From Sulfolobus acidocaldarius DSM 639 (GTDB lineage Archaea > Thermoproteota > Thermoprotei_A > Sulfolobales > Sulfolobaceae), in contig NC_007181.1 in assembly GCF_000012285.1 (NCBI RefSeq), forward strand, positions 390,001 to 422,000: a stretch of DNA of 32,000 bases, given 5' to 3'. The notes below the pieces were generated by a model. It was not told where the DNA came from. It saw only the letters and a list, made by a program, of their open reading frames with translations, and ran no database searches. Every line of letters starts with the position of its first letter. The stretch's first letter is position 1. Of the stretch, positions 4,110 to 31,590 are shown piece after piece. The position numbers were made by a program, and so were the translations under genes.

Positions 4110-4484
4110 CTATAATGTTATAATATTTATTCCAATAATTTTCTTTATATCCTCAAAGTCTTTATCATAGGTTATCAAAACCTCATTATTAGACTTGACA
4201 ATAGAAGCTATTAGAACATCGATATCTTCCTTTATTTTGCCCCGTGAAGCGAGTTCTCGATATATATCTGATGCAATTGAAGCTTCTCTAGCTGTGAAAG
4301 GATATATAACCATTTTTTCAATATGCTCTCTAACCTTATATCCAAACTTAGATCTTAGAATCTCATAGACGTTAAATACCGTTGTAGCTATCGTATCTTC
4401 GAACTCCTCAACTACTTTAAATGTGTTTTTGTCTCCTCTCATTACTCTTATTATCACATTGGAGTCAAGTATCACCATTTTCAA
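4110..4484 (-). CDS. vapC: PIN-domain ribonuclease toxin VapC
   Basis: MKMVILDSNVII (first acidic residue), YEIL (Glu), DVLIAS and TYDKDF (third and fourth Asp). Typical length of 124 aa. Confidence 0.85.
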   Translation of the reverse strand: MKMVILDSNVIIRVMRGDKNTFKVVEEFEDTIATTVFNVYEILRSKFGYKVREHIEKMVIYPFTAREASIASDIYRELASRGKIKEDIDVLIASIVKSNNEVLITYDKDFEDIKKIIGINIITL

Positions 4485-4713
4485 CAGCCCTAAACCTAAA
4501 ACTCTTTCTGATATTCAGTGTCTCACTAGCCATCTCCGTAGCCTCCTCTTCATTAAGAATTCCAAACATTTGGAGTAAAACATCCTTATTCCCCTTTCTA
4601 TTCTTGTTATAGAACTCAATTAGCTCATTTATAGTTTCACTGAATGACCTACCCTTCTTTAATTTCGATAATTTATCATAAACATCATCTGATATTGTAA
4701 TGACTTTAGGCAT
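4465..4713 (-). CDS. vapB: VapB-type antitoxin (DUF217-like)
   Basis: MPKVITISDDVYDKLSKLKKGRSFSETINELI matches the recalled archaeal VapB/DUF217 N-terminus. I start it at the internal Met (4713), not at the track start 4737. It overlaps vapC by 20 nt. Confidence 0.75.
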   Translation of the reverse strand: MPKVITISDDVYDKLSKLKKGRSFSETINELIEFYNKNRKGNKDVLLQMFGILNEEEATEMASETLNIRKSFRFRAVENGDT

Positions 4714-4869
4714 AAATATATTTATGCATGCATACATATATTAGCTTTCGCCTAAAGTAAACTACGGCCACTCTACTGTGTAGCAACAAAATTCTCTACT
4801 AGAGAGGGATTAATAGCAATACATATTTATCAACGTATTTATGAGAAAAGTTTTAGAGCTTATTATTAC

Positions 4870-5063: not shown

Positions 5064-5393
5064 TTATATCCAAACCTTTAACATAGCTTTAAATATCCCT
5101 TCTGAAATTTTATGATTTAGATTACGCCGCGGTAGTATAGCCCGGTCAAGTGTAATGCGCCGATAGTATGCGGGCCTTTCGAGCCCGTGACCCGGGTTCA
5201 AATCCCGGCCGCGGCACTTTAAGGTTATGAGGTTTCCCCCTAATACCCCCATATACGTTTCTATGATCTTTTCTAAAGGACCTATGTAATTGTGCCTTTC
5301 CTTACCATCTTGGCCCTTCTCTATATTATAGACATAATACTTTCCCTTAATCTCTTTAATATAGAATTTAGAACTAATGTAAAAGTTAGGCAT
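5064..5393 (-). pseudogene. N-terminal fragment Int(N) of a partitioned SSV-type integrase, reading antisense through the tRNA
   Basis: MPNFYISSKFYIKEIKGKYYVYNIEKGQDGKERHNYIGPLEKIIETYMG resembles the recalled SSV1 integrase N-terminus (RKGRYYVYK...ERYVGPLADVVESY). Beyond residue ~60 the ORF is just the antisense translation of the tRNA (RDLNPGHGLERP). A TATA-like tttataa at 5420-5426 sits ~27-33 nt upstream of the ATG. Confidence 0.65.
5126..5216 (+). tRNA. tRNA-Glu (anticodon UUC) with a 16-nt insert (putative non-canonical intron) in the D-arm
   Basis: The acceptor stem GCCGCGG/CCGCGGC is perfect. The T-arm is CCGGG-TTCAAAT-CCCGG. The anticodon arm is CGGGC-CTTTCGA-GCCCG, with anticodon TTC at 5178-5180. 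Removing 5150-5165 (gtgtaatgcgccgata) leaves a 75-nt cloverleaf. A TATA-like tttaaata lies ~35 nt upstream. Confidence 0.85.
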
Positions 5394-5688: not shown

Positions 5689-7623
5689 ATGTCTGCTAAA
5701 AATGATTCGGAAAGTAGGGTAAATAAAAGTTTCGATTCAACTCAACAACCTAACATATCCGAACAAGCTGGAAGTATTGCGCCTCAGCAAACTTCTGATT
5801 CATCTGCACCTCAGCAAGCTCAACAGAGTAATATTCCTTCACAGCCTTCTAATCAAGCCTCAGTTCAACAGGTGAGCCAGTCTCAACAACAAACTTACTA
5901 TATCGGAAAGGTCATAATTTCAAAAGATACTCCAGCGAAACATAACGAGTTTTGGGTATGGACAAAATCCCATATAGACATTGAGGTAGGCTCATCCTTC
6001 GTAATAGTTGAGGATCCTTCAGCTAGCAATAGAAAATATATTGTGGGTTTAGTAGTTGACTCAATGACAATGTCTACTTCTGAGAACGGTATTGCAGAAT
6101 ATTTTAGTAGTGGAGTTGGGGAACCTTTAATTAACCCGCCCATTGAACCAAGAGTGATTACTTTTTATAAGGTCAGAGTCATAAGTAGGGAACCTTCTAT
6201 AACTAAACCAGCAGAATCTAGAATGTTAGTGAGATTAGCTAGTCAAAATGACATAGATAGATTAAATTCCATCATAAAGCCTGAATATAGAGTTTTAGCA
6301 GGGTTTTTATACAATTTCACTAATCCATTAGATTCAAACAGCTGGATACCTATTTACTTTGACTCAACTTATCTTGCGGGTAAGCAAGGGGCTCATGTTA
6401 TGATAACAGGTAAAACAGGCTTAGCTACCAAAACCAGCTACGCGTTATTTTTAATACCTAATTTCCTACAACATGCCAAAATGAATAATAAAAGAGTCGC
6501 GGCAGTTCTTTTCAACGTAAAACAATGCGACCTATTTAACTTACACAATCTATTATTGTATAAAGATTGGGACTCATTATATAGTACAATCAAAAATTTG
6601 TTCGGTAATAGAACTGATCTTGCTGAATATAATATTGGAATGTGGAAAAGAATCAAAGAATTATATAATTTAAGTAAACCCAGTGATCTTATTCCAAAGG
6701 ATTCCAGTGGAAGACCTATGTTATATTATTATACTTATGCTGGTGATAATATATGCAGTTCTCAAATCTCTAATGCTGCGAATATACTTTTACAACAAAC
6801 AATTCCGACTTATTCCTATGGCCTAATGGACTTAGGAATACCTGAATTAATTACCGCTCTTTCGAACGGAAAATACGATACTATGAGTGAGCCACAAAGG
6901 GTCGCTATAAGTCTTTTAGCTAGGAAGGTAATTCCAGAATTGAAAGAAGAAATAAGCTTTGATAAATTATTAAATGATGCAAACAAGCAGCGTAGTATTT
7001 TTATGAAACTACTTACTAATAATGTAGATGAACGCACTGTTCCCGTTATAATAAGGTATCTAATAGATTTTGTAGGAACAAACAGAAATATAGGATTAGA
7101 ATTACAAAATGCTCATGGAAACCCAATAAAAGATACGAATATTCATGAAGGTATTAACATAATTCAGTTAAATGGCTTGTCCGACACAATGCAAAATATA
7201 GTGTTCAGCTCGGTACTGCGAACTTTAATGAACATTCAACAAGATCAAAATAATAATAGAAGATTCGACTATATCATCGTATTTGTAGATGAACTAAACA
7301 AGTTCGCTCCTAAAAGAGGCGAATCGCCTATTAAAGATCTTATAGTTGATATCGCAGCAAGAGCTAGAAGTCTAAATATAGGTTTGATCGGAGCGCAGCA
7401 GTTTGCGTCACGGATAGAAACACAGGTATATGGAAATGCGTCGACTTATGTAGTAGGAAATACAGATGCAGCAGAACTTAAAGAAGATGAATACAAAGCA
7501 TTTTCAGACTTTAAGGACATGATTTACCAATTACAGAAAGGCCAAATGGTCATTTATCAGCCGTCAACCTTTATCTCACCTATTAAGATAAGGTTTCCAG
7601 TAATTCCCTATGATGTAAGCTAA
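5689..7623 (+). CDS. HerA/DUF87-like (FtsK-HerA clade) ATPase with a Q/S-rich disordered N-terminus
   Basis: 644 aa. Walker B is IIVFVDELNKF. A P-loop-like ITGKTGLATKTS deviates from GxxxxGK[ST]. A barrel-like segment YIGKVIISKD...IVGLVVD lies N-terminal to the ATPase, as HerA HAS-barrels do. Residues 1-70 are S/Q/P-rich. Confidence 0.6.
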   Translation: MSAKNDSESRVNKSFDSTQQPNISEQAGSIAPQQTSDSSAPQQAQQSNIPSQPSNQASVQQVSQSQQQTYYIGKVIISKDTPAKHNEFWVWTKSHIDIEVGSSFVIVEDPSASNRKYIVGLVVDSMTMSTSENGIAEYFSSGVGEPLINPPIEPRVITFYKVRVISREPSITKPAESRMLVRLASQNDIDRLNSIIKPEYRVLAGFLYNFTNPLDSNSWIPIYFDSTYLAGKQGAHVMITGKTGLATKTSYALFLIPNFLQHAKMNNKRVAAVLFNVKQCDLFNLHNLLLYKDWDSLYSTIKNLFGNRTDLAEYNIGMWKRIKELYNLSKPSDLIPKDSSGRPMLYYYTYAGDNICSSQISNAANILLQQTIPTYSYGLMDLGIPELITALSNGKYDTMSEPQRVAISLLARKVIPELKEEISFDKLLNDANKQRSIFMKLLTNNVDERTVPVIIRYLIDFVGTNRNIGLELQNAHGNPIKDTNIHEGINIIQLNGLSDTMQNIVFSSVLRTLMNIQQDQNNNRRFDYIIVFVDELNKFAPKRGESPIKDLIVDIAARARSLNIGLIGAQQFASRIETQVYGNASTYVVGNTDAAELKEDEYKAFSDFKDMIYQLQKGQMVIYQPSTFISPIKIRFPVIPYDVS

Positions 7624-7637
7624 CATTAGGTGAAAGA

Positions 7638-9005
7638 ATGAGTGAGAATGAAAACGATCTGAAAGAATGGTTAAAGGGAAACCAAAGTGTTAAGCTCTCA
7701 GTTCAAGGATTTTCGGATGATGATCCCGAAGAAGAGATAGTAGGTACCGAAAACGTATCTTTAGATGACAGCGACTCCTTAAATCTTCAAATTCAGCTAA
7801 AATATCCTCTACCTCAAGCGACTAATAATGATCTAATATTTATCGATGGTACTAGTAGATATAGAGTGATAGGAAGTTTTAAGGCTAATAATGTCTTAGT
7901 TCCTATCGTATTCGGGAATATTATCGCGGGTGCAATGAGATTAGATGCTGGAAATAAAACATTAAGACCCTTAAAAGTGAAAATATTAAAAGTTGTTCTC
8001 TTCCCTAAGAAGACTATAGAAGACTACCAGTCAGCTATAATACCGCTACCGCCCAATATACCGATAATAGAAGATAATAGTTCTACGAAGTTCATGAATT
8101 TTAGTAATAATCTTGTTGATACATTTATACGAATTTCAGATATATCATATACACTTGGTGAAAATGAAAGCGGACAACACAGACAACTAATTTATAGAGA
8201 AGATTTGATTTCATCAGGGAAGATAAGACAAGTCGCCAGAAATAGAGTTAAAGAATTAATGAGGGTCTTAGAGTTATCATTATTATATGAATTAAGGCAG
8301 CTTTACAAAGACAGCCTAATTTTAATGGACGGTCCTATAGGTCCTTTAATTAAGTATGCTGGACTCGTAGATATTTATCTTAGAGAAGTAGTGAGGTTAA
8401 GAGATAATGACTCTAATAATATAGAGAAGGCATATGATCTGCTTCATAATGTTATAGGTGTAGTTAAGAAGGTGGTCAAAGTTCCTGTATCATTAATTGA
8501 TGCTATTTCTAGTGGTAATTTGCCTAAAATATATAGATGGAATAAAGTTATAGACGATGGTATAGACGCCGAAGGGAAGGAAGACTCCTATTTAACTAGT
8601 TATATACTTAGTGCTTTTTTAAAACTAAGAGAAGAGTTACAAAACGAGAACTTTCCCGCGTTCTCAAATTTATCTGGATTAATAAGAGTCGATATTCCTT
8701 TAGCATCTATCATAGATAAAAGTGAGTGGATTAGTTTCTTCAGCTACACTCAAATAAAGGATAGCGATGATAAGGGGAATATTATACTTACTGATTATGG
8801 TAGGCAAAAAATATACGACTTAGTTGTAAAAGGTGGCAAAAAACTAGAGGAGCTATTAAATATAGTATACAGTTTCAAATATCCGATACCAAGCTCCTCC
8901 CCATACAGAAATTTAGTAGAACTTTATCCAATAAAGGAAGTAGAAGACTGGATGAAATCTCATTTAATGAGCAAATATGAGATGGCATCATATGTATATT
9001 CTTAA
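7638..9005 (+). CDS. NurA-like nuclease domain protein
   Basis: 455 aa, beginning 14 nt after the ATPase stop. LIFIDGTSRY, LILMDGPIGPLI and VIGVVKKVVKV resemble the recalled NurA motifs (xDGS, xDGSL, GvsK). Confidence 0.5.
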   Translation: MSENENDLKEWLKGNQSVKLSVQGFSDDDPEEEIVGTENVSLDDSDSLNLQIQLKYPLPQATNNDLIFIDGTSRYRVIGSFKANNVLVPIVFGNIIAGAMRLDAGNKTLRPLKVKILKVVLFPKKTIEDYQSAIIPLPPNIPIIEDNSSTKFMNFSNNLVDTFIRISDISYTLGENESGQHRQLIYREDLISSGKIRQVARNRVKELMRVLELSLLYELRQLYKDSLILMDGPIGPLIKYAGLVDIYLREVVRLRDNDSNNIEKAYDLLHNVIGVVKKVVKVPVSLIDAISSGNLPKIYRWNKVIDDGIDAEGKEDSYLTSYILSAFLKLREELQNENFPAFSNLSGLIRVDIPLASIIDKSEWISFFSYTQIKDSDDKGNIILTDYGRQKIYDLVVKGGKKLEELLNIVYSFKYPIPSSSPYRNLVELYPIKEVEDWMKSHLMSKYEMASYVYS

Positions 9006-9027: not shown

Positions 9028-9954
9028 TCATTCTTCTATCACTTTTTCTAACTTCTCTCTCAGTTCTTTGGTATCATAGCCGAAAGCCTCAGGCTCTTTT
9101 TCTAATACCCCTATGAAAACTTTAGCAACCTCTTTCCTCCCCTCCTCATTTAAGCTTCTTGGTTTTCCATTTTTATCGATTATCCTATACCTAAGATCTC
9201 TGCTGATGTCCATTATCATCTTCCTCGCCTCCTTTAAGGTATCACTTACTGGCATTTTGTCGTTTTTGACTACAGTGCAGACCCAACAGCCAAACCTAAC
9301 GTCAGTGGTTAACGCACAACCACAACCGTCATTGTCTTCTTTCACTTCATATAAGTTCAGTAAATAGTCGAATTCCCTACCGTCCCACCTCCTCTCGCTA
9401 CGTAGGTACCTAAACACGTCCTCAGTAGTCCAGTCGAGTATGGGCATAATAATCGGATTACCTAACCTTATTATTTTTTCATGCTTTCCGTTATACGCAG
9501 TCTGTTTAGCCCTTTCACTACTTTCCGTCATCCTTACACCAGAAAGTTGGACAAATTTTCCCAATTGCTCCATAAACCTCTTCATCGGTCTTAGCTTCAG
9601 TCTTTCCATGCACCACCTAAACCTGTGAGATGGTGCAGGATAGCCTCTTTCGACCATCATTGAGATGAAATCCTCTATGGGAGTTAATCTAATAGGCTTA
9701 ACATTAGGATAAACCTTTAAGCTCTCTAAAGCGTCTAAAGCCTCTTTTCTCAAGATCGGGTGCTCTAGCAAAGTGTCTGCGTAAACTACGTACAGCGTCT
9801 TAATCATAGCACCTCTTTCCATAGCTTTCAGAGTTAAACTTAGAACTGTAGTAGAATCCTTTCCTCCACTAAAACCTAATTCCCATGGTAAGTTTGATAA
9901 TTCTTCGCTAGCATTAATAATAAGTTCAATTGCCTCCTCTACTCTTGTTTCCAT
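9028..9954 (-). CDS. DndC-like PP-loop ATP pyrophosphatase (PAPS-reductase superfamily)
   Basis: FSGGKDSTTV (SGGKDS PP-loop), HRFRWCMERLKLRP and RFGCWVCTVV match recalled DndC/SspD-type signatures. It is the last gene of a 7-gene overlapping operon. Confidence 0.7.
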   Translation of the reverse strand: METRVEEAIELIINASEELSNLPWELGFSGGKDSTTVLSLTLKAMERGAMIKTLYVVYADTLLEHPILRKEALDALESLKVYPNVKPIRLTPIEDFISMMVERGYPAPSHRFRWCMERLKLRPMKRFMEQLGKFVQLSGVRMTESSERAKQTAYNGKHEKIIRLGNPIIMPILDWTTEDVFRYLRSERRWDGREFDYLLNLYEVKEDNDGCGCALTTDVRFGCWVCTVVKNDKMPVSDTLKEARKMIMDISRDLRYRIIDKNGKPRSLNEEGRKEVAKVFIGVLEKEPEAFGYDTKELREKLEKVIEE

Positions 9955-9955
9955 A

Positions 9956-10609
9956 TTATTTACACCTCACCCTTGCAAGATATTCTACGAACGATTGATA
10001 ATACCCCTTTATTATAACTCTGAGTTCAGTGATATTTTTCCAAAACTTGACAGGTATGATATAGTACTGACTTTTCGCACCATATTCGTACTCATTTAAT
10101 CTAATCTTATTCTGCCCATAGAGATTAAGGATAGAGAGTGCTACGATTAATTTCAATTTATCTTCTCTATCGTTATAGTGGATAAAAATTGTTCTTCCCA
10201 ACACATCAAATTCTTGCGCAACCCAAACTTTGGTAGATAATACTGCATAGATAGGTTCACCATATCTTTGCTCTGACTGTTCTTCAGTCCATGAAGATCC
10301 TGTTGTGTCAATAAACAGCCCAGGCCAGTATCTGTCTTCCCCGTTCTCTTTATAGTGATAATAAATCGTGAAGTCGTATTTGTCTAAGACGTCTTTGTAG
10401 TAGTCGTGATTAATAACGCTCGTCAGCGTACCTATACCAGTCCTCCTAAGGTAAATATTATCTGGAATTAGGCCCTTTTCCTTCCACTGTTTTAACTTAA
10501 TGTGAAGTAGCCCGTAGATTAGGTACTCCCTACCTAGGTGCTCGTTTGGGACCTCAAAGCCGTCAAAGTTAGAGTTGGCCCAGTACCTTTGCTTGAAATC
10601 AGTTGACAT
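9956..10609 (-). CDS. Hypothetical protein (217 aa), immediately upstream partner of the DndC-like gene
   Basis: The ORF ends 1 nt before the DndC-like start codon. No motif recognised. Confidence 0.65.
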   Translation of the reverse strand: MSTDFKQRYWANSNFDGFEVPNEHLGREYLIYGLLHIKLKQWKEKGLIPDNIYLRRTGIGTLTSVINHDYYKDVLDKYDFTIYYHYKENGEDRYWPGLFIDTTGSSWTEEQSEQRYGEPIYAVLSTKVWVAQEFDVLGRTIFIHYNDREDKLKLIVALSILNLYGQNKIRLNEYEYGAKSQYYIIPVKFWKNITELRVIIKGYYQSFVEYLARVRCK

Positions 10610-13483: not shown

Positions 13484-13809
13484 AAAACTCCCCAGTTAAA
13501 TGAGAAAAATTATAACTGAAACAAATACAACTACTATTATTACTACTACTAACTGAAAAACAAACAAAACTCAAACAAACAAACACAAACTTTTACACTC
13601 ATTTTTACGCTTGCTAATTTACTATAATTATTAGACTAATTCAATTTTTTACATTTTTTAGAAATTTTTTAATGACGTTAAGATGACGTTAGGGCTCCGT
13701 CAAGCCTTAGAGAGCCTGGGCCCAAGGCTACTTAACTGTGCCAATGGCCAAACTGTGAGTAGTAGTTAATAATGCTAGCTGAATTTCTCTCAGTAAACTG
13801 GGGAGTTTT
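13484..13809. mobile_element. Non-autonomous MITE-like element (~325 bp) with long terminal inverted repeats
   Basis: The left end is aaaactccccagttaaatgagaaaaatt...actactattattactactact. The right end is gagtagtagttaataatg...gaatttctctcagtaaactggggagtttt. It has no ORF and a CAAA-rich interior. Confidence 0.7.
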
Positions 13810-14711: not shown

Positions 14712-14762
14712 GGTGACAAAAAGACGACAAGCCTCGCCCTTTTAAGGCGGGGAGGAGGTCAG
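14712..14762 (+). repeat. Hairpin unit (PATE/REP-like) forming the left end of the composite block
   Basis: ggtgacaaaaagacgacaagcctcgcccttttaaggcggggaggaggtcag. Confidence 0.7.
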
Positions 14763-15582: not shown

Positions 15583-15888
15583 ATGTCCGTAGAGTTCAAC
15601 TTAACCCTTAACCAAGTTAAGGTAAAGGGAAGTGTCTTTTCTCTAAACCCCTACTCTTTTGAAGCGATAAAGAGGTGGTATGACAAGTTCCTAAAGTGGT
15701 GTGAGAACTATGACGTCATGACGTACTGCCAGAAGGACATGGAAGAGGAGGTAGAGTACTTAGCTGAGGCTTTCAGACTGTTAGCCCCTAAGAGCTTAGA
15801 GGAGGCTGAAGAATATTTCGCCGTCTTGGAAAGGGCTTACGACTCTACTGAGGGTAAGATAAAGGAAGTGTTTGTTAGGGCTATGTAA
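15583..15888 (+). CDS. Hypothetical acidic protein (101 aa, passenger gene)
   Basis: ORF with normal composition. Its stop lies inside the conserved gtaaaggtttttt motif that marks the tnpB element's left end. Confidence 0.55.
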   Translation: MSVEFNLTLNQVKVKGSVFSLNPYSFEAIKRWYDKFLKWCENYDVMTYCQKDMEEEVEYLAEAFRLLAPKSLEEAEEYFAVLERAYDSTEGKIKEVFVRAM

Positions 15889-17224
15889 AGGTTTTTTGAG
15901 GAGTAATGGGCGAAGGAAAGTGAAGAGGAGTAATATAGTTAGACTAGTTGTCTCGAAGGACGTGGGCAAGAAGTTGAGGGAGCTAGCAACATGGACTGCC
16001 AAGTGTTGGAACGAGGTTAACTGGTTGAGGATGCAACAGTTCAAGGAAGGGAAGATGGTGGACTTTAACGACACTGAGAAAGTAGTGTACGCTAAATACA
16101 AGGAGTACTTAAAGGTAAATGCCCAACAAGTGTGTAGGAAGAACGCCGAGGCATGGCGTTCCTTCTTCTCGCTAATGAAGGACAAGAAAGACGGTAAGTT
16201 GCCTAGCTGGTTTAAGCCTAGACCACCAGGGTATTGGAAGGATAAACGTGGTAGCTACAAACTGTTAATACTAATCAGAAATGATAGGTATACAGTAGAC
16301 GAGAACGCTAGAACAATTTATCTGAAGGACTTTGGGTTAACACTTCACTTCAAAGGCAAGCTTAAGTGGAAGGGCAAACAAGGAAGGTTAGAGATATTCC
16401 ATAATGGACTACATTGGTGTGCATCTATACCAGTTGAGGTGGAGGTTAACGCTAAGCCCAAAGGTAATGGTATAGCTGGAGTAGATTTAGGTATTGTTAA
16501 CTTGGCTACTGTAGTGTTCGATGATAGCTCGTGGGTGTTGTTCAAAGGTGGTTCTGTACTATCAGAGTATGAGAACTACTCTAGAAAGATTGCAATTACG
16601 CAGAAAAAGTTGTCATTGCATAAGCAAGAGAGGAGTAAGAGGTTGAAGGCGTTGTTTCTAAAGAGGAAGAGGTTCTTAAAACACGTGTTGAACTCTATGG
16701 CTAGGAAGACTGTAGAGACTGCTTACGAGAAAGGAGTATCGATAATTAAGGTCGGGTATCCCAAGGAAATATCAAAACACCACGGGAATAAGCTCACTGT
16801 AAACTTCTGGAACTACAACTACGTTATTAGGAGGATGCAAGAGGTCTCAGAGGAGTACGGCATCAAAGTCGAAACGGTGAACGAGGCTTATACTTCAATT
16901 GTGTGTTCCCTATGTGGGGAAGCCCATGAAAATGGGCGTATACACCGTGGTTTGTTTAAGTGTCCCCACATAGGGAAAGTCGTTAACGCAGACTTGAACG
17001 GGGCGATAAACATCCTACATATCCCCAAGTCCCGAGGAGGGTGGAGTGAGGGTAACTCCACCAAAGGGATAGGGGTAAAATGGCTGAAGACCCAGCCAGT
17101 GGTCTACCACTGGACGAGCGGAGCGGGGTGGGTGTTTAAATCACCCACTAGCTGTGAAGCGATGGGAATGAAGGTGGTGAACCACAGACCTGTGAACCGC
17201 CCTAGGGGAACCCTCACCCTTTAG
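15872..17224 (+). CDS. tnpB: TnpB (IS200/IS605-family RuvC-like RNA-guided nuclease), apparently intact
   Basis: GVDLGIVNLATV (RuvC-I Asp), VETVNEAYTS (Glu), the zinc-finger region CSLCG...CPH, and NADLNGAINIL (RuvC-III Asp). The real start may be GTG 15920. The last ~70 codons read through the RE/omega-RNA region. Confidence 0.85.
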   Translation: MLGLCKGFLRSNGRRKVKRSNIVRLVVSKDVGKKLRELATWTAKCWNEVNWLRMQQFKEGKMVDFNDTEKVVYAKYKEYLKVNAQQVCRKNAEAWRSFFSLMKDKKDGKLPSWFKPRPPGYWKDKRGSYKLLILIRNDRYTVDENARTIYLKDFGLTLHFKGKLKWKGKQGRLEIFHNGLHWCASIPVEVEVNAKPKGNGIAGVDLGIVNLATVVFDDSSWVLFKGGSVLSEYENYSRKIAITQKKLSLHKQERSKRLKALFLKRKRFLKHVLNSMARKTVETAYEKGVSIIKVGYPKEISKHHGNKLTVNFWNYNYVIRRMQEVSEEYGIKVETVNEAYTSIVCSLCGEAHENGRIHRGLFKCPHIGKVVNADLNGAINILHIPKSRGGWSEGNSTKGIGVKWLKTQPVVYHWTSGAGWVFKSPTSCEAMGMKVVNHRPVNRPRGTLTL

Positions 17225-17241
17225 GGCGGGGAGGAGGTCAG
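16995..17241 (+). ncRNA. Predicted omega (re)RNA scaffold of TnpB, overlapping the tnpB 3' end and the RE hairpin
   Basis: Placed by analogy with characterised TnpB systems. The same ~230 nt are conserved in the tnpB-less derivative at 28875-29110, which supports a non-protein function. The 5' limit is approximate. Confidence 0.45.
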
Positions 17242-19514: not shown

Positions 19515-19557
19515 AAAGTGACGAAAGCCTCGTCCTTTAGGGCGGGGAGGAAGTCAG
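19515..19557 (+). repeat. Hairpin unit (PATE/REP-like)
   Basis: aaagtgacgaaagcctcgtcctttagggcggggaggaagtcag, preceded by ttac (19511-19514). It lies between convergent genes. Confidence 0.7.
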
Positions 19558-20772: not shown

Positions 20773-21165
20773 TTAACTCCCCAGTTAACTGAGAAAAATA
20801 AAATGTAAAAGTCTGCTTTGGTCCTGTCCTATATTCAATTAACTTATCAGTTTCTGTAAAAGTAACTGTAAACTGAAACAAATATAACTAACACTATTAC
20901 TACTACTTAATCTAAAACTCTAAAACAAAAACTCAAACTTTTACACTCTTTTACATTTAGGCTAAAGATTTGCTAAAGTCTTGCTAAATTGCACTTTTAG
21001 ATTTATTTTTGAGAAAAAGTTTAGAAAAAGCGATAAGAAGGAGGCTCACAAAAAGGCATTTGGACCCAGCTAGAGGAGTATAGGCTATGGGTAAAATCTG
21101 CTACTTGTGCATGAGTAGTAGTAAATAATAGTAGTTGAATTTCTCTCATTTAACTGGGGAGTTTA
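20773..21165. mobile_element. Second copy of the MITE-like element (~393 bp)
   Basis: The termini are ttaactccccagttaactgagaaaaat and gaatttctctcatttaactggggagttta. The interior shares aaactgaaacaaata..actattactactact and aaactcaaac..ttttacactc with the copy at 13484-13809. Confidence 0.7.
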
Positions 21166-22927: not shown

Positions 22928-22965
22928 CTGACCTCCTCCCCACCCTGAGAGGTCTCTTTCATTTC
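22928..22965 (-). repeat. Degenerate hairpin unit directly after the PIN-like stop codon
   Basis: ctgacctcctccccaccctgagaggtctctttcatttc. Confidence 0.5.
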
Positions 22966-23892: not shown

Positions 23893-24879
23893 CTATTTTT
23901 CTTTTTCCTCAGCTTGGTTGGTCTCTAACAGAGATCTGACCTTTTCTTCTACCTCAGAAATATATTCGTCAAACTCGTCCGACTTATAGAGCTTACTTAT
24001 TTCTTTTTTAAGCTCTACCAAGTTTTCTAATATTTCCTTCTGATGATCTTTTACATCTTTCAAATACTCCCAATCTTCATCAGTTCTACCCTTAGTAAAC
24101 CTCTTTATGTAAGCGTTTGTCAAAAACGCTGTATAAAGAAGGTAATCAAACAACTTTTGATTACCAAGGTCTAGCATGCTCAGTATTTGGTCTAGTAGGT
24201 AAGGTTCATCTATGAGTGTAGAGATTATCAGTTTTTGCTCATCAGACAATTGCTTACAGTATCCCTCAGCCTCCTCTGGTGGTGAAAGTAAGCACAATCT
24301 CATCAAGTTAAGTATTCTATCGTTTAGATTCCTCAGACTGAAACTATTTACTAAATCCTTTCTAATATTAAGCAATTCGTCATATCTTCTTTTCTCAGGT
24401 GGTTTAGTTATATATTCCTTTACTCTTCTATATAACCTTCCTAGTTCTCGTTGTTTTAGCTCAAACATCAGCTTGCTAGTCGTAGATAGAAGTTCAGCTA
24501 TATGGGACTTCCCTATAGGGTCATGTTTAAGTTTTTCCGCAATTTTCTCTTCATTTACAGCGTCCTTTACTAAGTTGGTAAAGCTGTTTATGACATTCTG
24601 AACTAGCCTAGGGAACCTTAAGTGGGCTTTATTACTAACAGAGATAATAGAGACGGGGAGTAGTATTAATACCCCATAGCCGGCCAAAAAAGCCTTAGAG
24701 AAATTCTCATAGGAAGACGCTATGTCCTCTATCTTTTTTTCCTCCAAAGCTTCAACATCTGTTATCTCGCTGGCCTTGGTTTTAAGGTACTCATAAGTGG
24801 CTATCGCACCTTCTGCGTTCTTAATTGCATCCCTAATATAACTGTAAAACAGAGACTTCTTCCTGCTAGGCTGACTCAG
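23893..24879 (-). CDS. Helical protein with one TM segment, cassette 1 partner; the canonical start is lost
   Basis: The track ORF starts at TTG 24747. Homology to the paralog 25699..26682 continues in frame up to 24879, where CTG replaces the paralog's TTG start. The TM-like segment is FLAGYGVLILLPVSIISV. Confidence 0.55.
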   Translation of the reverse strand: MSQPSRKKSLFYSYIRDAIKNAEGAIATYEYLKTKASEITDVEALEEKKIEDIASSYENFSKAFLAGYGVLILLPVSIISVSNKAHLRFPRLVQNVINSFTNLVKDAVNEEKIAEKLKHDPIGKSHIAELLSTTSKLMFELKQRELGRLYRRVKEYITKPPEKRRYDELLNIRKDLVNSFSLRNLNDRILNLMRLCLLSPPEEAEGYCKQLSDEQKLIISTLIDEPYLLDQILSMLDLGNQKLFDYLLYTAFLTNAYIKRFTKGRTDEDWEYLKDVKDHQKEILENLVELKKEISKLYKSDEFDEYISEVEEKVRSLLETNQAEEKEK

Positions 24880-24881
24880 CC

Positions 24882-25328
24882 TTATTTCCCTCTCAATATC
24901 TTATCCCGTATAATGGAGTAACTGGTATACTCAGGATAACGATAATAGACGTATTTTAAAATCTCGCTCCTACTTTTCCTTACCCACTCCCTAAAGAAGT
25001 CCAATACTTTTTTGTCTACTCCCTTTATTTCCATGTCTTTAGCTAATACATATTTCCTCCTCACTCCTACCACAAAGCCAGTTATCATATCCTCCACCGG
25101 GTCTTCCTCCACGCTCACTATTCCTGCGTCAATAAGCTTGTTTATTTTATTTTGCAGATACTCAGAGTAAGGGCCAAAATAAAAAGGCTCAAATCCTAAT
25201 CCTAAATCAACACCTCCTTCCTTTTCTAACAAAAAGAATATCTTCTGGAGCTTTGTAGCAGTTACCTCAGCATTTTCCTCCTTTGCCACCTTAAGGAGGG
25301 CAAGGATGTAATTGTCAACAGTGTCCAT
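24882..25328 (-). CDS. Panacea/SocA (DUF4065)-like putative antitoxin, cassette 1
   Basis: TATKLQKIFFLLEKEGG...FEPFYFGPYSEYL resembles the recalled DUF4065 pattern (KLQKLLYy...f.aw.yGPv). The start is set at MDTVDN, as in the paralog. Confidence 0.55.
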   Translation of the reverse strand: MDTVDNYILALLKVAKEENAEVTATKLQKIFFLLEKEGGVDLGLGFEPFYFGPYSEYLQNKINKLIDAGIVSVEEDPVEDMITGFVVGVRRKYVLAKDMEIKGVDKKVLDFFREWVRKSRSEILKYVYYRYPEYTSYSIIRDKILRGK

Positions 25329-25472
25329 AAATGCCACCAACTAAAATATAGTTTACACTTTAAGCATTTATTTTTTAATACGGGGTCTTCATCGAAACTA
25401 AATAGAAAACTATGGAGTTAATTTAACACCTCATCCAAATCCTTTTTATACACTCCCAATGAGTTTACACAT

Positions 25473-25625
25473 ATGAAGATTGAGAAGAGAGAGGGTGAAG
25501 AGGAAGTAGACATAATCTTTGAGAGCAAGGAAGATCTAGAGGAGTTTAGACAACTACTTATTAAGAAGTATTATGAGCTTAATCCCGACCGCAAACCTCC
25601 TTATGGGACCCAATCCTCCAGATAA
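25473..25625 (+). CDS. Small acidic ORF (50 aa) divergent from cassette 1, not in the ORF track
   Basis: MKIEKREGEEEVDIIFESKEDLEEFRQLLIKKYYELNPDRKPPYGTQSSR. It is conserved with 27271..27429. Confidence 0.45.
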   Translation: MKIEKREGEEEVDIIFESKEDLEEFRQLLIKKYYELNPDRKPPYGTQSSR

Positions 25626-25642: not shown

Positions 25643-25690
25643 CTGGCTTCCTGCCCGCCCTGAGGGGCGAGGCTTGTCTCATCTTTGTCA
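25643..25690 (-). repeat. Hairpin unit (PATE/REP-like) at the junction of the two cassettes
   Basis: ctggcttcctgcccgccctgaggggcgaggcttgtctcatctttgtca. Confidence 0.65.
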
Positions 25691-25698
25691 GAAGCTTC

Positions 25699-26682
25699 CT
25701 ATTTTTCCTCATCTTGGTCAGTCTTTAGCAAAGACCTAGCCTTTTCCTCAATATCAGCTAAGACTTCGTCAAACTCATCGTTGTACGCTATTTCATATAA
25801 GGCATCACTAACGTGTTTTAGGTTATCAAGCATCTCTTTTTGGTGATCCCTAAGTTCTTCTAAGTATTTTTCGTCCACATCTTCCCTACCTTCGGAATAC
25901 GCAGCAATCCCGCTTGCGGCATGCGCTAAATATGCCGTATATAGTAGAGTGTCGAGGAGCTCATATACGCCTAAATCCATTATGCTTAGAATTTGATCCA
26001 AAAGGTAAGGTTTATCTAACAAAATTTTCAAAACTTTCTTATCCTTTTCGCTCAGTGCCTGACAGTATTCAGCAGACTCTTCAGGATAGGACAGTAAGCA
26101 TTCTTCCAATAGGGAAGTTACCTCATTGCTTAACTCTCTAAGCGTAAATGAAACTGTAATTTTCTTTCTTAGGTCTTGAAGTTCTTTATAATTTCTATCT
26201 TTGGGAGGCTTCTCTATGAATCTATTTATATCGTCAAACAGTTTCTTTAACTCGGTCTGCCCCAGTTCATTTAACAACTCGCTAGAGGCTCTAAGTAGTT
26301 CCACTATCTTAGATCCTCCTACAGGGTCGTGGCCCAGCTTTTTCTTTATGACCTTAGGCGAAGTTCCCTGCCTAATTAACTCTCTAAAAGAGTTCTCTAT
26401 TCTCTGAAGATGTCTAGGAAACCTCAGATTAGCATTTGAATTCACAGAAAATATTGCAACTGGTATAAGTATAATAGTGCCATAAGTAGAAAGCAAAGCC
26501 TTTGAGAAGGCCTCATAGGCCCTTGCTATACTAAACATCTTTTTCTCTTCGAGAGAACGGACATCCTTTACCTCTTCAGCCTTGTTTTGTAACCTATCAT
26601 ACGCCGCTTGGGCCTCTTCAAAAAAACCTATGCCATCTCTAACAAAGTTGTTAAAGATCGACCTCTTCTTACGCGTTCCCAA
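25699..26682 (-). CDS. Helical protein with one TM segment, cassette 2 partner (TTG start)
   Basis: 327 aa with LLSTYGTIILIPVAIFSV. It overlaps the upstream Panacea-like gene by 14 nt. Confidence 0.6.
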   Translation of the reverse strand: MGTRKKRSIFNNFVRDGIGFFEEAQAAYDRLQNKAEEVKDVRSLEEKKMFSIARAYEAFSKALLSTYGTIILIPVAIFSVNSNANLRFPRHLQRIENSFRELIRQGTSPKVIKKKLGHDPVGGSKIVELLRASSELLNELGQTELKKLFDDINRFIEKPPKDRNYKELQDLRKKITVSFTLRELSNEVTSLLEECLLSYPEESAEYCQALSEKDKKVLKILLDKPYLLDQILSIMDLGVYELLDTLLYTAYLAHAASGIAAYSEGREDVDEKYLEELRDHQKEMLDNLKHVSDALYEIAYNDEFDEVLADIEEKARSLLKTDQDEEK

Positions 26683-27130
26683 TAAGTTTTCCCCTAATCA
26701 CCTTATCCCTTATTACAGAGTATCTAGTGTAGTCAGGGTAACGTCTGTAAACGTAAGTTAGTATTTCCTGTCTGGGCTTGGATACCCACTCCTTGAAGAA
26801 CTGTATGATTTCATTCCTTACATTATCCACTTTGACGTCATTTGCTAGTACATACTTCCTCTTTATGCCTATGGTGAGCCCTGATATGACGTCTTTGACC
26901 TCTTCTTCCTCAACGTCGACCATACCGAGCTCAATCAGACTGTTAATACGGTCTTGGAGTAGCTTTGAGTATGGTCCAAACAACCATGGTTCAAAGTTTA
27001 GACCTAGATTAACTCCTCCCTCCTTTTCTAACAAAAAGAATATCTTCTGGAGCTTTGTAGCAGTTACCTCAGCATTTTCCTCCTTTGCCACCTTAAGGAG
27101 GGCAAGGATGTAATTGTCAACAGTGTCCAT
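26669..27130 (-). CDS. Panacea/SocA (DUF4065)-like putative antitoxin, cassette 2
   Basis: 153 aa. TATKLQKIFFLLEKEGG...FEPWLFGPYSKLL. Confidence 0.55.
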   Translation of the reverse strand: MDTVDNYILALLKVAKEENAEVTATKLQKIFFLLEKEGGVNLGLNFEPWLFGPYSKLLQDRINSLIELGMVDVEEEEVKDVISGLTIGIKRKYVLANDVKVDNVRNEIIQFFKEWVSKPRQEILTYVYRRYPDYTRYSVIRDKVIRGKLIGNA

Positions 27131-27270
27131 GAGTATATCACCAACTAGATGTTTTCATTTTAAGTATTTATTTAAAGATGGAGTCTTCCTCAAAACTAAA
27201 TAGAAAACTATGGAGTTAATTTAACACCTCATCCAAATCCTTTTTATCCACTCCCAATGAGTTTACATAT

Positions 27271-27429
27271 ATGAAAATAGTAAAGAGAGAAGGTGAAGAG
27301 GAAACTGACATAATCTTTGAGAGCAAGGAGGAACTTGACAGATTTTTTGACGAGCTTATTAAGGAAGCTGAGGAAAGGGAAAAGGCTAGAAGTAAACCTT
27401 CTCATGAGGATAATTCGTTAAAGTTTTAA
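27271..27429 (+). CDS. Small acidic ORF (52 aa) divergent from cassette 2, not in the ORF track
   Basis: MKIVKREGEEETDIIFESKEELDRFFDELIKEAEEREKARSKPSHEDNSLKF. Confidence 0.45.
   Translation: MKIVKREGEEETDIIFESKEELDRFFDELIKEAEEREKARSKPSHEDNSLKF

Positions 27430-27610: not shown

Positions 27611-29241
<1,631 letters not shown>

Positions 29242-31550: not shown

Positions 31551-31590
<40 letters not shown>

Follow-up and report, generated by a model that had tools for sequence, protein, structure and literature searches.

A HerA- and NurA-like gene pair linked to a short DndC-like gene on an integrated element of Sulfolobus acidocaldarius: a probable modification-dependent restriction module

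What is the function of a gene pair for a HerA-like ATPase and a NurA-like nuclease that sits on an integrated element of an archaeon, with a gene of the DndC type as its neighbour? The question is raised by a stretch of 32,000 nucleotides (nt) from Sulfolobus acidocaldarius DSM 639 (contig NC_007181.1, positions 390,001 to 422,000), which was analysed as a whole and is called the window below. A first-pass annotation, made from the sequence alone, had described the pair and its convergent neighbour, and had suggested an undescribed defence or element-maintenance system. Exact look-up identified the open reading frames (ORFs) as Saci_0472, Saci_0473 and Saci_0474. Their coordinates were confirmed, with 14 nt between the first two genes and 22 nt between the stop codons of Saci_0473 (9005) and of the convergent Saci_0474:

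5689..7623, + strand: HerA-like ATPase Saci_0472, 644 amino acids (aa), from Pfam DUF87 and matches to Deinococcus radiodurans HerA (DrHerA)
7638..9005, + strand: NurA-like nuclease Saci_0473, 455 aa, from its NurA fold and hhalign
9028..9954, - strand: mini-DndC Saci_0474, 308 aa, from the PAPS_reduct and DndC profiles

We propose that Saci_0472-0474 are probably a three-gene, modification-dependent restriction module carried on the integrated element. Among the roles considered, defence is the best reading and a probable one, as the first-pass annotation had supposed.

The linkage of the three genes is specific. In 15 independent loci, a HerA-like gene followed by a NurA-like gene adjoins a short (300-400 aa) PAPS-reductase/DndC-like gene. 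The archaeal loci are the window itself and those of Acidianus sp. HS-5 (L001), S. islandicus HVE10/4 (L003), Metallosphaera sedula (L004) and a Njordarchaeales metagenome-assembled genome (MAG; L006). Others stem from hot-spring and other metagenomes (L008, L009, L094, L095, L098, L123, L133), and the bacterial ones from Thermocrinis (L090/L091), a Chloroflexia MAG (L010) and an Aquificota MAG (L018, which ends at the contig end). A metagenome scan with the DndC-like alignment was dominated by canonical DndC, and contributed three further trios. The DndC-like gene is convergent with the pair in some loci and divergent or co-directional in others, and it adjoins the pair in 15/15 module loci. 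As a control, species-representative genomes were scanned with the ATPase, which returned at least 80 relatives, all of them bacterial among the matches listed. Two of these relatives, L010 and L018, have the DndC-like gene, L010 being the closest bacterial relative of the ATPase among the matches listed; the gene is present in 0/78 of the other bacterial relatives among those matches. In these 78 control loci, again among the matches listed, a detected NurA gene always lies upstream of HerA, many of them with SbcD/SbcC downstream, and a Calothrix locus displays the same repair-operon pattern, NurA-HerA-SbcD-SbcC. Furthermore, the 13 ATPases encoded beside a DndC-like gene are monophyletic in a neighbour-joining tree (91 clade members), with no repair-type member inside. 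The DndC-like gene is a conserved third component of the module, and not merely part of a neighbouring operon, as had been assumed at first; that it is convergent in the window was seen correctly. Given the constant company of the HerA-NurA pair with a small DndC gene, the trio is most likely a rare defence of the restriction-modification type.

The module is mobile and patchily distributed. Its surroundings include an integrase or the N-terminal integrase fragment int(N), TraG/TrbE, ParM and toxin-antitoxin genes, as well as PLD or other nucleases; the gene content around the trio varies between elements and the trio stays constant. Neither Mre11/Rad50 nor SbcCD genes were found beside the pair in the module loci examined, by a SbcD/SbcC scan and among the called genes, so that the placement of the pair outside the Mre11/Rad50 context stands. 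Within Sulfolobales, the pair is present in S. acidocaldarius and Acidianus HS-5, and in a single lineage of S. islandicus and a single M. sedula. The NurA-like family is rare: a search of 1.84 billion clusters at 50% identity returned 83 representatives at E <=1e-3. A core Sulfolobales gene pair, which would have undone the earlier proposal, is ruled out by this patchy distribution and by the rarity of the family.

Several loci carry further genes next to the trio. A protein of about 602 aa is encoded directly upstream of the ATPase in S. islandicus HVE10/4 (L003 8172-9983) and M. sedula (L004 6345-8153); the two copies are 92% identical, have an N-terminal region that reads as winged-helix-like, and have no Pfam family on record. 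The Njordarchaeales locus (L006 3306-6060) encodes an extra 558-aa P-loop protein (GDWGQGKT) and a 353-aa protein, and in the metagenomic locus L008 (2088-7204) the nuclease is flanked by two HerA-like paralogues. These extra genes of L003/L004, L006 and L008 may be specificity or sensor subunits. A PLD-family, NgoFVII-like protein is encoded near the trio in Acidianus (L001 8512-9552) and S. islandicus (L003 4556-5575), with 49% identity between the two, and SfsA near the trio in Njordarchaeales (L006 9372-10064) and in L009 (814-1560).

Each of the three proteins has the fold and the intact catalytic motifs expected of its family. Saci_0472 is a predicted hexameric translocase of double-stranded DNA, with the following parts (AF2, AlphaFold2; pLDDT, predicted local distance difference test):

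aa 1-70, nt 5689-5898, + strand: disordered, Q/S-rich head (composition, pLDDT)
about aa 72-225, + strand: HAS-barrel-like beta domain (AF2 model)
aa 241-249, nt 6409-6435, + strand: Walker A, GKTGLATKT (sequence)
aa 529-539, nt 7273-7305, + strand: Walker B, IIVFVDELNKF (sequence)
nt 7357-7401, + strand: region of R558/R560/Q571 (invariant columns)

The central domain of HerA (Pfam DUF87) is recognised at 26.2 bits, above its cut-off, and the sole significant sequence match in the PDB is DrHerA 7f6d (phmmer 2e-31; family profile 2e-65). The AF2 model, built with 26 homologues in the alignment, has a mean pLDDT of 82.6, and shows the N-terminal HAS barrel, RecA-like core and helical insertion of the HerA fold. 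Its best Foldseek matches are DrHerA 7wrw/7wrx/7f6d (E 1e-33 to 2e-29; template-modelling score 0.60-0.73), followed by the HerA of Thermococcus kodakarensis and S. solfataricus, and then by SIR2-HerA, DUF4297-HerA and TdpAB. PADLOC returns weak matches to defence models of the HerA type (mad8 1e-8, DndH C-terminal domain, HerA).

The first-pass annotation had read the P-loop of Saci_0472 correctly as GKTGLATKT and had considered it deviant. The protein follows the clade-specific HerA pattern G-x-[ST]-G-x-A-x-K-T for Walker A and the pattern hhhhDE for Walker B, and the longer motif G-x-[ST]-G-[LV]-A-[TA]-K-T-[ST]-Y-A-L-F-L is invariant in 26/26 aligned clade members, among them Deinococcus and cyanobacterial HerA. 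Judged from this alignment, the P-loop is the signature of a Deinococcus-type HerA clade and no defect of this protein. A degenerate or inactive P-loop, considered as a candidate explanation, is ruled out by the clade-wide invariance of the motif. Invariant in the family are also K248/T249, D534/E535 of the Walker B motif (which had rightly been called good), R558/R560 and Q571. The low-complexity head of about 70 residues is real as well: Q makes up 24% and S 23% of the first 70 residues, and the pLDDT stays <50 over residues 1-66, which are predicted to be disordered. Heads of this Q/S type, similar in composition and poorly conserved in sequence, occur only in the Sulfolobales subclade; other subclades are headless or have a helical extension in its place.

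For Saci_0473, the NurA profile of Pfam (PF09376) scores 19.9 bits, just under the cut-off of 21, and phmmer found no match in the PDB. Its AF2 model (pLDDT 76; predicted template-modelling score 0.84) is matched by Foldseek to D. radiodurans NurA (DrNurA; 7f6d_G, 2e-10) and to Thermotoga maritima TM1739 (1zup, 9e-9), with T. kodakarensis and Pyrococcus furiosus NurA coming after TM1739. All PDB fold matches with E <1e-3 are NurAs, namely 7f6d_G, 1zup, 9x1n_G, 9x1m_G and 3tai. When the profile of the NurA-like family was aligned by hhalign with bacterial repair-operon NurAs, the whole protein was spanned over 288 columns (99.1% probability, E 9e-19), and the family profile places the DG and DGP motifs of Saci_0473 on TM1739. 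As AF2/Foldseek, the TM1739 profile alignment and hhalign all agree, Saci_0473 is assigned to NurA despite the sub-threshold Pfam score, and the earlier suggestion of a NurA-type fold is borne out. The protein is a predicted dimeric nuclease of the RNase-H fold that would dock on the ATPase. Its acidic residues are intact:

nt 7845-7847 (in FIDGT), + strand: D70, invariant
nt 8262-8279 (RVLELS), + strand: E212, invariant
nt 8322-8345 (MDGP), + strand: D231, invariant
nt 8682-8699 (IRVDIP), + strand: D352, invariant

All four are invariant in the 15 sequences of the family alignment (A1). The fourth ligand of P. furiosus NurA is a histidine, the counterpart of which was not identified in Saci_0473. 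The DGP (aa 231-233) and GVVK (aa 274-277) motifs are as first described, and the supposed DGS reads DGT (FIDGTSRY, aa 68-75). Repair NurAs measure 330-345 aa, which makes Saci_0473 about 100-120 aa longer, close to the excess noted at first, and the extra residues are insertions. A viral origin, tried as a candidate, was rejected: no DNA match was found in the phage collection, the nuclease has no PHROG family, and there was no fold match in BFVD. In the plasmid collection, tblastn of Saci_0472 found only repair-type bacterial relatives.

Saci_0474 is a predicted PP-loop ATP pyrophosphatase of the PAPS-reductase fold, and would be the DNA-modifying (phosphorothioating) component. Its motifs are:

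aa 29-35, nt 9850-9870, - strand: PP-loop SGGKDST, invariant
nt 9610-9621, - strand: C115 (FRWC), invariant
nt 9277-9291, - strand: C223/C226 (GCWVC), invariant

It is recognised by Pfam PAPS_reduct (2e-16) and by the DndC model of PADLOC (1e-44), and in an alignment with canonical DndC among its members SGGKDST, C115, C223 and C226 are all invariant. The equivalog profile TIGR03183 for full-length DndC (about 450-520 aa with the C-terminal domain) matches over profile positions 12-279 of 447 with an E value of 2.8e-41, and its 141.8 bits fall short of the cut-off of 290.4. No other dnd or ssp genes were found within the window, and tblastn of Saci_0474 against the plasmid collection found only canonical dndC. 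Short DndC-like genes without a HerA-like or NurA-like neighbour were met on two contigs resembling mobile genetic elements (L093 7001-7987 and L097 2842-3717), as would be expected of a self-sufficient modifier. These genes may be orphan modifiers, and could act as anti-restriction cargo.

Some further properties of Saci_0474 and its relatives were recorded. The G+C content of the gene is 0.41, compared with 0.33-0.35 for the ATPase and nuclease genes in the window. Between the window and the loci of Acidianus, S. islandicus and M. sedula, the DndC-like proteins are 66-69% identical, the ATPases 49-53% and the nucleases 45-47%. The orphan proteins of L093 and L097 are 52-55% identical to Saci_0474, and one of them comes from an archaeal contig that also encodes a TraG-like ATPase and DUF932.

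How might the three proteins work together? The mini-DndC would mark the resident DNA, using ATP through its PP-loop and probably an iron-sulfur cluster on the three invariant cysteines, and the mark would most likely be a backbone phosphorothioate. A hexameric ring of the HerA-like protein would pump double-stranded DNA, and a NurA-like dimer seated on the ring would degrade the DNA fed to it, in an assembly of the HerA6-NurA2 type. A mark on self DNA would stall or exclude the motor-nuclease, so that only unmarked incoming DNA of viruses or plasmids would be destroyed. The module could also penalise cells that lose the element, and so have an addiction effect. We reason here from relatives: the motor-nuclease step and the predicted complex follow from homology to solved HerA-NurA complexes, the step of self/non-self discrimination from analogy with TdpABC and Dnd, and the modification chemistry is predicted from the family of the mini-DndC. 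The HerA-NurA of T. kodakarensis degrades both strands processively, and a defence role has been considered possible for it (PMC12977600). PAPS-reductase-type enzymes of Dnd, Ssp and BREX type 4 (BrxP) make phosphorothioate (PMC12914056; PMC10853773).

The closest published design is TdpABC. According to PMC12914056, tdp is a third phosphorothioate system, described from extremophilic bacteria, in which tdpC alone suffices for the modification, with the consensus GpsATC. The general design of a one-gene DndC with a HerA-type ATPase and a nuclease was already published in 2025 (An et al., Nat Chem Biol 21:1160, doi 10.1038/s41589-024-01832-w, cited in PMC12914056; PDB 8wfd/8wet), which makes the first-pass description of the system as undescribed doubtful. 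The likeness is considerable. Both systems are compact and combine a single short DndC-type gene with a HerA-superfamily ATPase and a partner B component; both are confined to thermophiles; and the order A to B with C adjacent fits the published gene names. A solitary short DndC beside A and B genes, without DndA/B/D/E, which is a trait of TdpABC (PMC12914056), is what is found in the window. TdpA itself is a HerA-fold ATPase solved with DNA (8wet/8wfd). In the work of An et al. from 2025, the B component is reportedly a nuclease, and the mark is said to inhibit the translocation and nuclease activity of TdpAB.

The differences concern ancestry and setting. TdpA matches the Saci_0472 model with a Foldseek E value of about 2e-15 and 12-13% identity, as compared with 1e-33 for DrHerA. 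No Tdp chain was found among the PDB sequences by the NurA-like profile or the Thermocrinis NurA-like protein. As no Tdp chain was found for either protein by sequence, the analogy rests on architecture and not on orthology. Here, the restriction pair belongs to the bacterial-type (Deinococcus-type) NurA-HerA repair lineage, and the module is found on archaeal integrated elements, whereas Tdp is described from extremophilic bacteria. The published Tdp survey may already include this lineage. We advance tentatively, as a real possibility, that a one-gene backbone-modification system recruited a dedicated offshoot of the bacterial-type NurA-HerA machine for its restriction arm, independently of TdpAB, and that the resulting module spreads on mobile elements among thermophilic archaea and bacteria.

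Several observations weigh against a modification-dependent restriction module of the Tdp kind. In Foldseek, TdpA is no closer to Saci_0472 than are the SIR2- or DUF4297-associated HerAs; it was not found from the ATPase by HMMER profile or phmmer, including searches with the Thermocrinis orthologue, at E <=1 to <=10; and the top 50 fold matches of the Saci_0473 model include no chain of 8wet/8wfd. The short DndC-like proteins lack the C-terminal ~150-190 aa of canonical DndC, and no gene for a cysteine desulfurase or sulfur donor, DndD/E or an Ssp partner adjoins Saci_0474. Within the window, Saci_0472/0473 and Saci_0474 are separate, convergent transcription units, and PADLOC has no model for the NurA-like nuclease. 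Moreover, S. acidocaldarius is routinely transformed with Escherichia coli plasmids that are protected only by GGCC methylation, against SuaI. Such easy transformation makes a strong constitutive barrier to unmarked circular DNA unlikely; the module may need DNA ends, may be weakly expressed, or may be specialised. Finally, no DNA modification is known from S. acidocaldarius. A literature search on Saci_0472-0474 yielded only an incidental peak: chromatin immunoprecipitation sequencing (ChIP-seq) of the chromatin protein Sul12a showed an enriched region at genome positions 395,203-396,359, inside Saci_0472, the ORF listed as nearest to it (PMC9025068).

Alternatively, the trio could be a modification machine only, in which the HerA-like translocase and a NurA-like nickase serve the mini-DndC, as SspC/SspB serve SspD. 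The mark itself would then be the purpose, for example as a shield of the element DNA against oxidative damage or other restriction systems. The tight linkage of the trio fits this explanation, as does the lack of separate scanning, nicking or ATPase partners of the Dnd/Ssp type beside the mini-DndC, and the easy transformation of S. acidocaldarius would fit an absent restriction arm. We nevertheless regard it as unlikely. The short DndC-like gene also stands alone on L093 and L097, and tdpC by itself suffices for phosphorothioate synthesis (PMC12914056). NurA-HerA proteins are processive degraders of both strands (PMC12977600), not site-specific nickases. In addition, the acidic residues of the nuclease are invariant, and among Sulfolobales the nuclease evolves faster (45-47% identity) than the DndC-like protein (66-69%).

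Improbable too, in our judgement, is a role of the pair as a second NurA-HerA helper in end processing or recombination, serving replication, integration, excision or repair of the element, with the DndC-like gene as unrelated cargo. This explanation draws on descent: the closest solved relatives form the HerA-NurA repair complex of D. radiodurans, and the sister bacterial loci are NurA-HerA-SbcD-SbcC operons. It is contradicted by the absence of Mre11/Rad50 or SbcCD beside the pair in the module loci examined, by the inverted gene order (HerA to NurA), and by the separate clade that the ATPases form. Chance cargo would also leave unexplained why the DndC-like gene is present in 15/15 module loci compared with 0/78 repair-type loci among the matches listed, and why the trio is constant when the neighbouring element genes vary.

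That the trio no longer functions, and is merely left over from a decayed element, appears very improbable. Decay of the element itself is suggested by its partitioned integrase, with no C-terminal integrase part, int(C), or att repeat in the window, and by the IS605-type TnpB genes and duplications that it holds. The three ORFs, on the other hand, are full-length with intact catalytic motifs, and the trio is kept across phyla. The same NurA-like and DndC-like sequences are also present, under their own accessions, in several other S. acidocaldarius genomes, in which a near-identical HerA-like protein (same 90% cluster) is found under neighbouring accessions. Weakest of all is the idea that an integrated conjugative plasmid is present and that Saci_0472 is its VirB4/TrbE/TraG-like ATPase for conjugation or DNA transfer, for although TraG/TrbE-type genes occur in some trio loci (Acidianus L001, Thermocrinis L090) and there is a weak PHROG FtsK/SpoIIIE match, the top 50 fold matches are all of the HerA type including TdpA, with no VirB4, TrwB or FtsK, the DrHerA profile match reaches 2e-65, the conjugation ATPases of L001 and L090 are separate genes, and the window has no conjugation genes, all of which leaves this idea next to no credibility and confirms the HerA assignment made at first.

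Where does a modification-dependent restriction module of this composition stand among known systems? The best sequence and fold matches for both the ATPase and the nuclease are the D. radiodurans NurA-HerA (7F6D/7WRW) and TM1739, and D. radiodurans HerA shares the Walker A type (G-x-S-G-V-A-T-K-T) and the C-terminal motifs. The module differs from bacterial NurA-HerA in its inverted order (HerA to NurA) without SbcCD/Mre11-Rad50, in proteins that form a separate clade, with a nuclease lengthened by ~100 aa through insertions, and in its constant link to a DndC-like gene; its Sulfolobales subclade has the Q/S-rich head in addition. With Dnd, Ssp and BREX type 4, the module shares a PAPS-reductase-fold PP-loop enzyme with the FRWC and GCWxC cysteines, and DndH of Dnd also carries a HerA/FtsK-type ATPase domain (PMC10853773). 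It lacks the DndA/B/D/E, SspA/B/C and Brx partners of these systems, its restriction arm is NurA-HerA and not DndFGH, SspE or PglZ, and its DndC-like protein is about 200 aa shorter than that of Dnd. The comparative-genomics paper on Dnd makes no mention of NurA, and a literature search for NurA together with DndC or PAPS reductase found no paper combining them.

Two-gene defence operons of the SIR2-HerA/Nezha and DUF4297-HerA types resemble the pair in coupling a HerA hexamer with an effector enzyme (fold E about 1e-15 to 1e-17). They differ in that the effector is NurA here, in the ATPase clade, and in having no modification gene; to our knowledge, these systems use no self-DNA mark. The canonical archaeal HerA-NurA-Mre11-Rad50 proteins (4D2I, 9X1L-9X1P) have the same two folds, presumably also as hexamer and dimer, and a role in defence has been suggested for archaeal HerA-NurA (PMC12977600). 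Their HerA is only distantly related (profile E 1e-6 to 4e-9, 12-13% identity) and has another Walker A type, and their genes lie in a core operon, in contrast to the mobile context of the module. S. acidocaldarius carries this canonical operon elsewhere in its genome.

The immediate surroundings of the trio support its location on an element. Relevant features in the window are:

5064..5393, - strand: N-terminal fragment, int(N), of an SSV-type (partitioning) integrase (Pfam PF07935 SSV1_ORF_D-335, 3.9e-11)
5126..5217, + strand: tRNA-Ser(CGA) (ARAGORN), integration target and left border of the integrated element
7629..7633, + strand: Shine-Dalgarno-like GGTGA, inside the 14-nt gap and 4 nt ahead of the ATG of the second gene
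9956..10609, - strand: gene of the VirArc_Nuclease family (Pfam PF12187, 2.5e-107; phrog_9634 nuclease, 5e-73)

The int(N) fragment overlaps the tRNA-Ser(CGA) gene and reads outward through it; with its counterpart on the S. islandicus HVE10/4 element the fragment shares 55% identity. Together, the tRNA and int(N) support the left border, and Saci_0472/0473 lie just inside it, in agreement with the proposal that the pair is element-borne. As neither an att repeat nor int(C) was found within the window, the right end of the element lies outside the window or has decayed. Homologues of window genes out to ~27 kb occur on integrated elements of S. islandicus HVE10/4, M. sedula and Acidianus. The gap between Saci_0472 and Saci_0473 reads CATTAGGTGAAAGA, and its GGTGA fits co-transcription of the pair with coupled translation. 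A promoter and terminator scan relied on sigma-70 rules made for bacteria, which are uninformative in an archaeon. The VirArc_Nuclease gene lies directly upstream of the mini-DndC on the same strand, with 1 nt between them, and the two are probably co-transcribed. This gene was absent beside the DndC-like gene in the other loci examined, and may be a local accessory outside the conserved module.

Further features were seen in the rest of the window. A VapB (PF02697) and VapC/PIN (PF01850) toxin-antitoxin pair is encoded at 4110-4737 on the - strand, a few hundred bp outside the tRNA-Ser border. A G+C-rich palindromic repeat of ~33 nt (…CCCGCCCTAAAGGGCGAGG…) is present in eight copies in both orientations (families D3 and D4), at 14730-14762, 17209-17241, 19525-19557, 22928-22960, 25643-25675, 27621-27653, 28875-28907 and 31551-31583. 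Several of these are located at the ends of IS605-type TnpB/OrfB genes (15872-17224 and 27900-28895), and the palindromes look like IS200/605 ends or derived units similar to miniature inverted-repeat transposable elements. A segment of ~1.8 kb is duplicated in tandem at 23893-25540 and 25699-27338 (repeats D1 and D2; 70-89% identity). Each copy is a gene pair for proteins of ~150 aa and ~300 aa, with homologues on the S. islandicus HVE10/4 element (L003 2732-4173), and the smaller protein matches phrog_14939 (unknown function). An A-rich intergenic repeat of ~120 bp at 13486-13604 and 20775-20952, 7.3 kb apart and with 83-85% identity (D5, D7 and D8), could stand for boundaries within the element or for regulatory regions that are shared.

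If Saci_0472-0474 act as proposed, HerA-NurA proteins, long seen as repair enzymes and with an archaeal role that is now questioned (PMC12977600), would be linked to restriction-modification of the phosphorothioate type. The hypercompact design of one modification gene plus a motor-nuclease would have arisen, or diversified, with different motor-nuclease lineages, and the module would be a natural case of a NurA-HerA nuclease performing self/non-self discrimination. S. acidocaldarius DSM 639 would also carry a phosphorothioate or another DndC-type DNA mark, of which we found no report for this strain in the literature. The module is rare and clearly delimited, and it occurs in a genetically tractable model archaeon with known viruses, which makes the proposal directly testable. 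Furthermore, transformation and genome engineering of S. acidocaldarius could be affected by a modification or restriction activity that has gone unrecognised.

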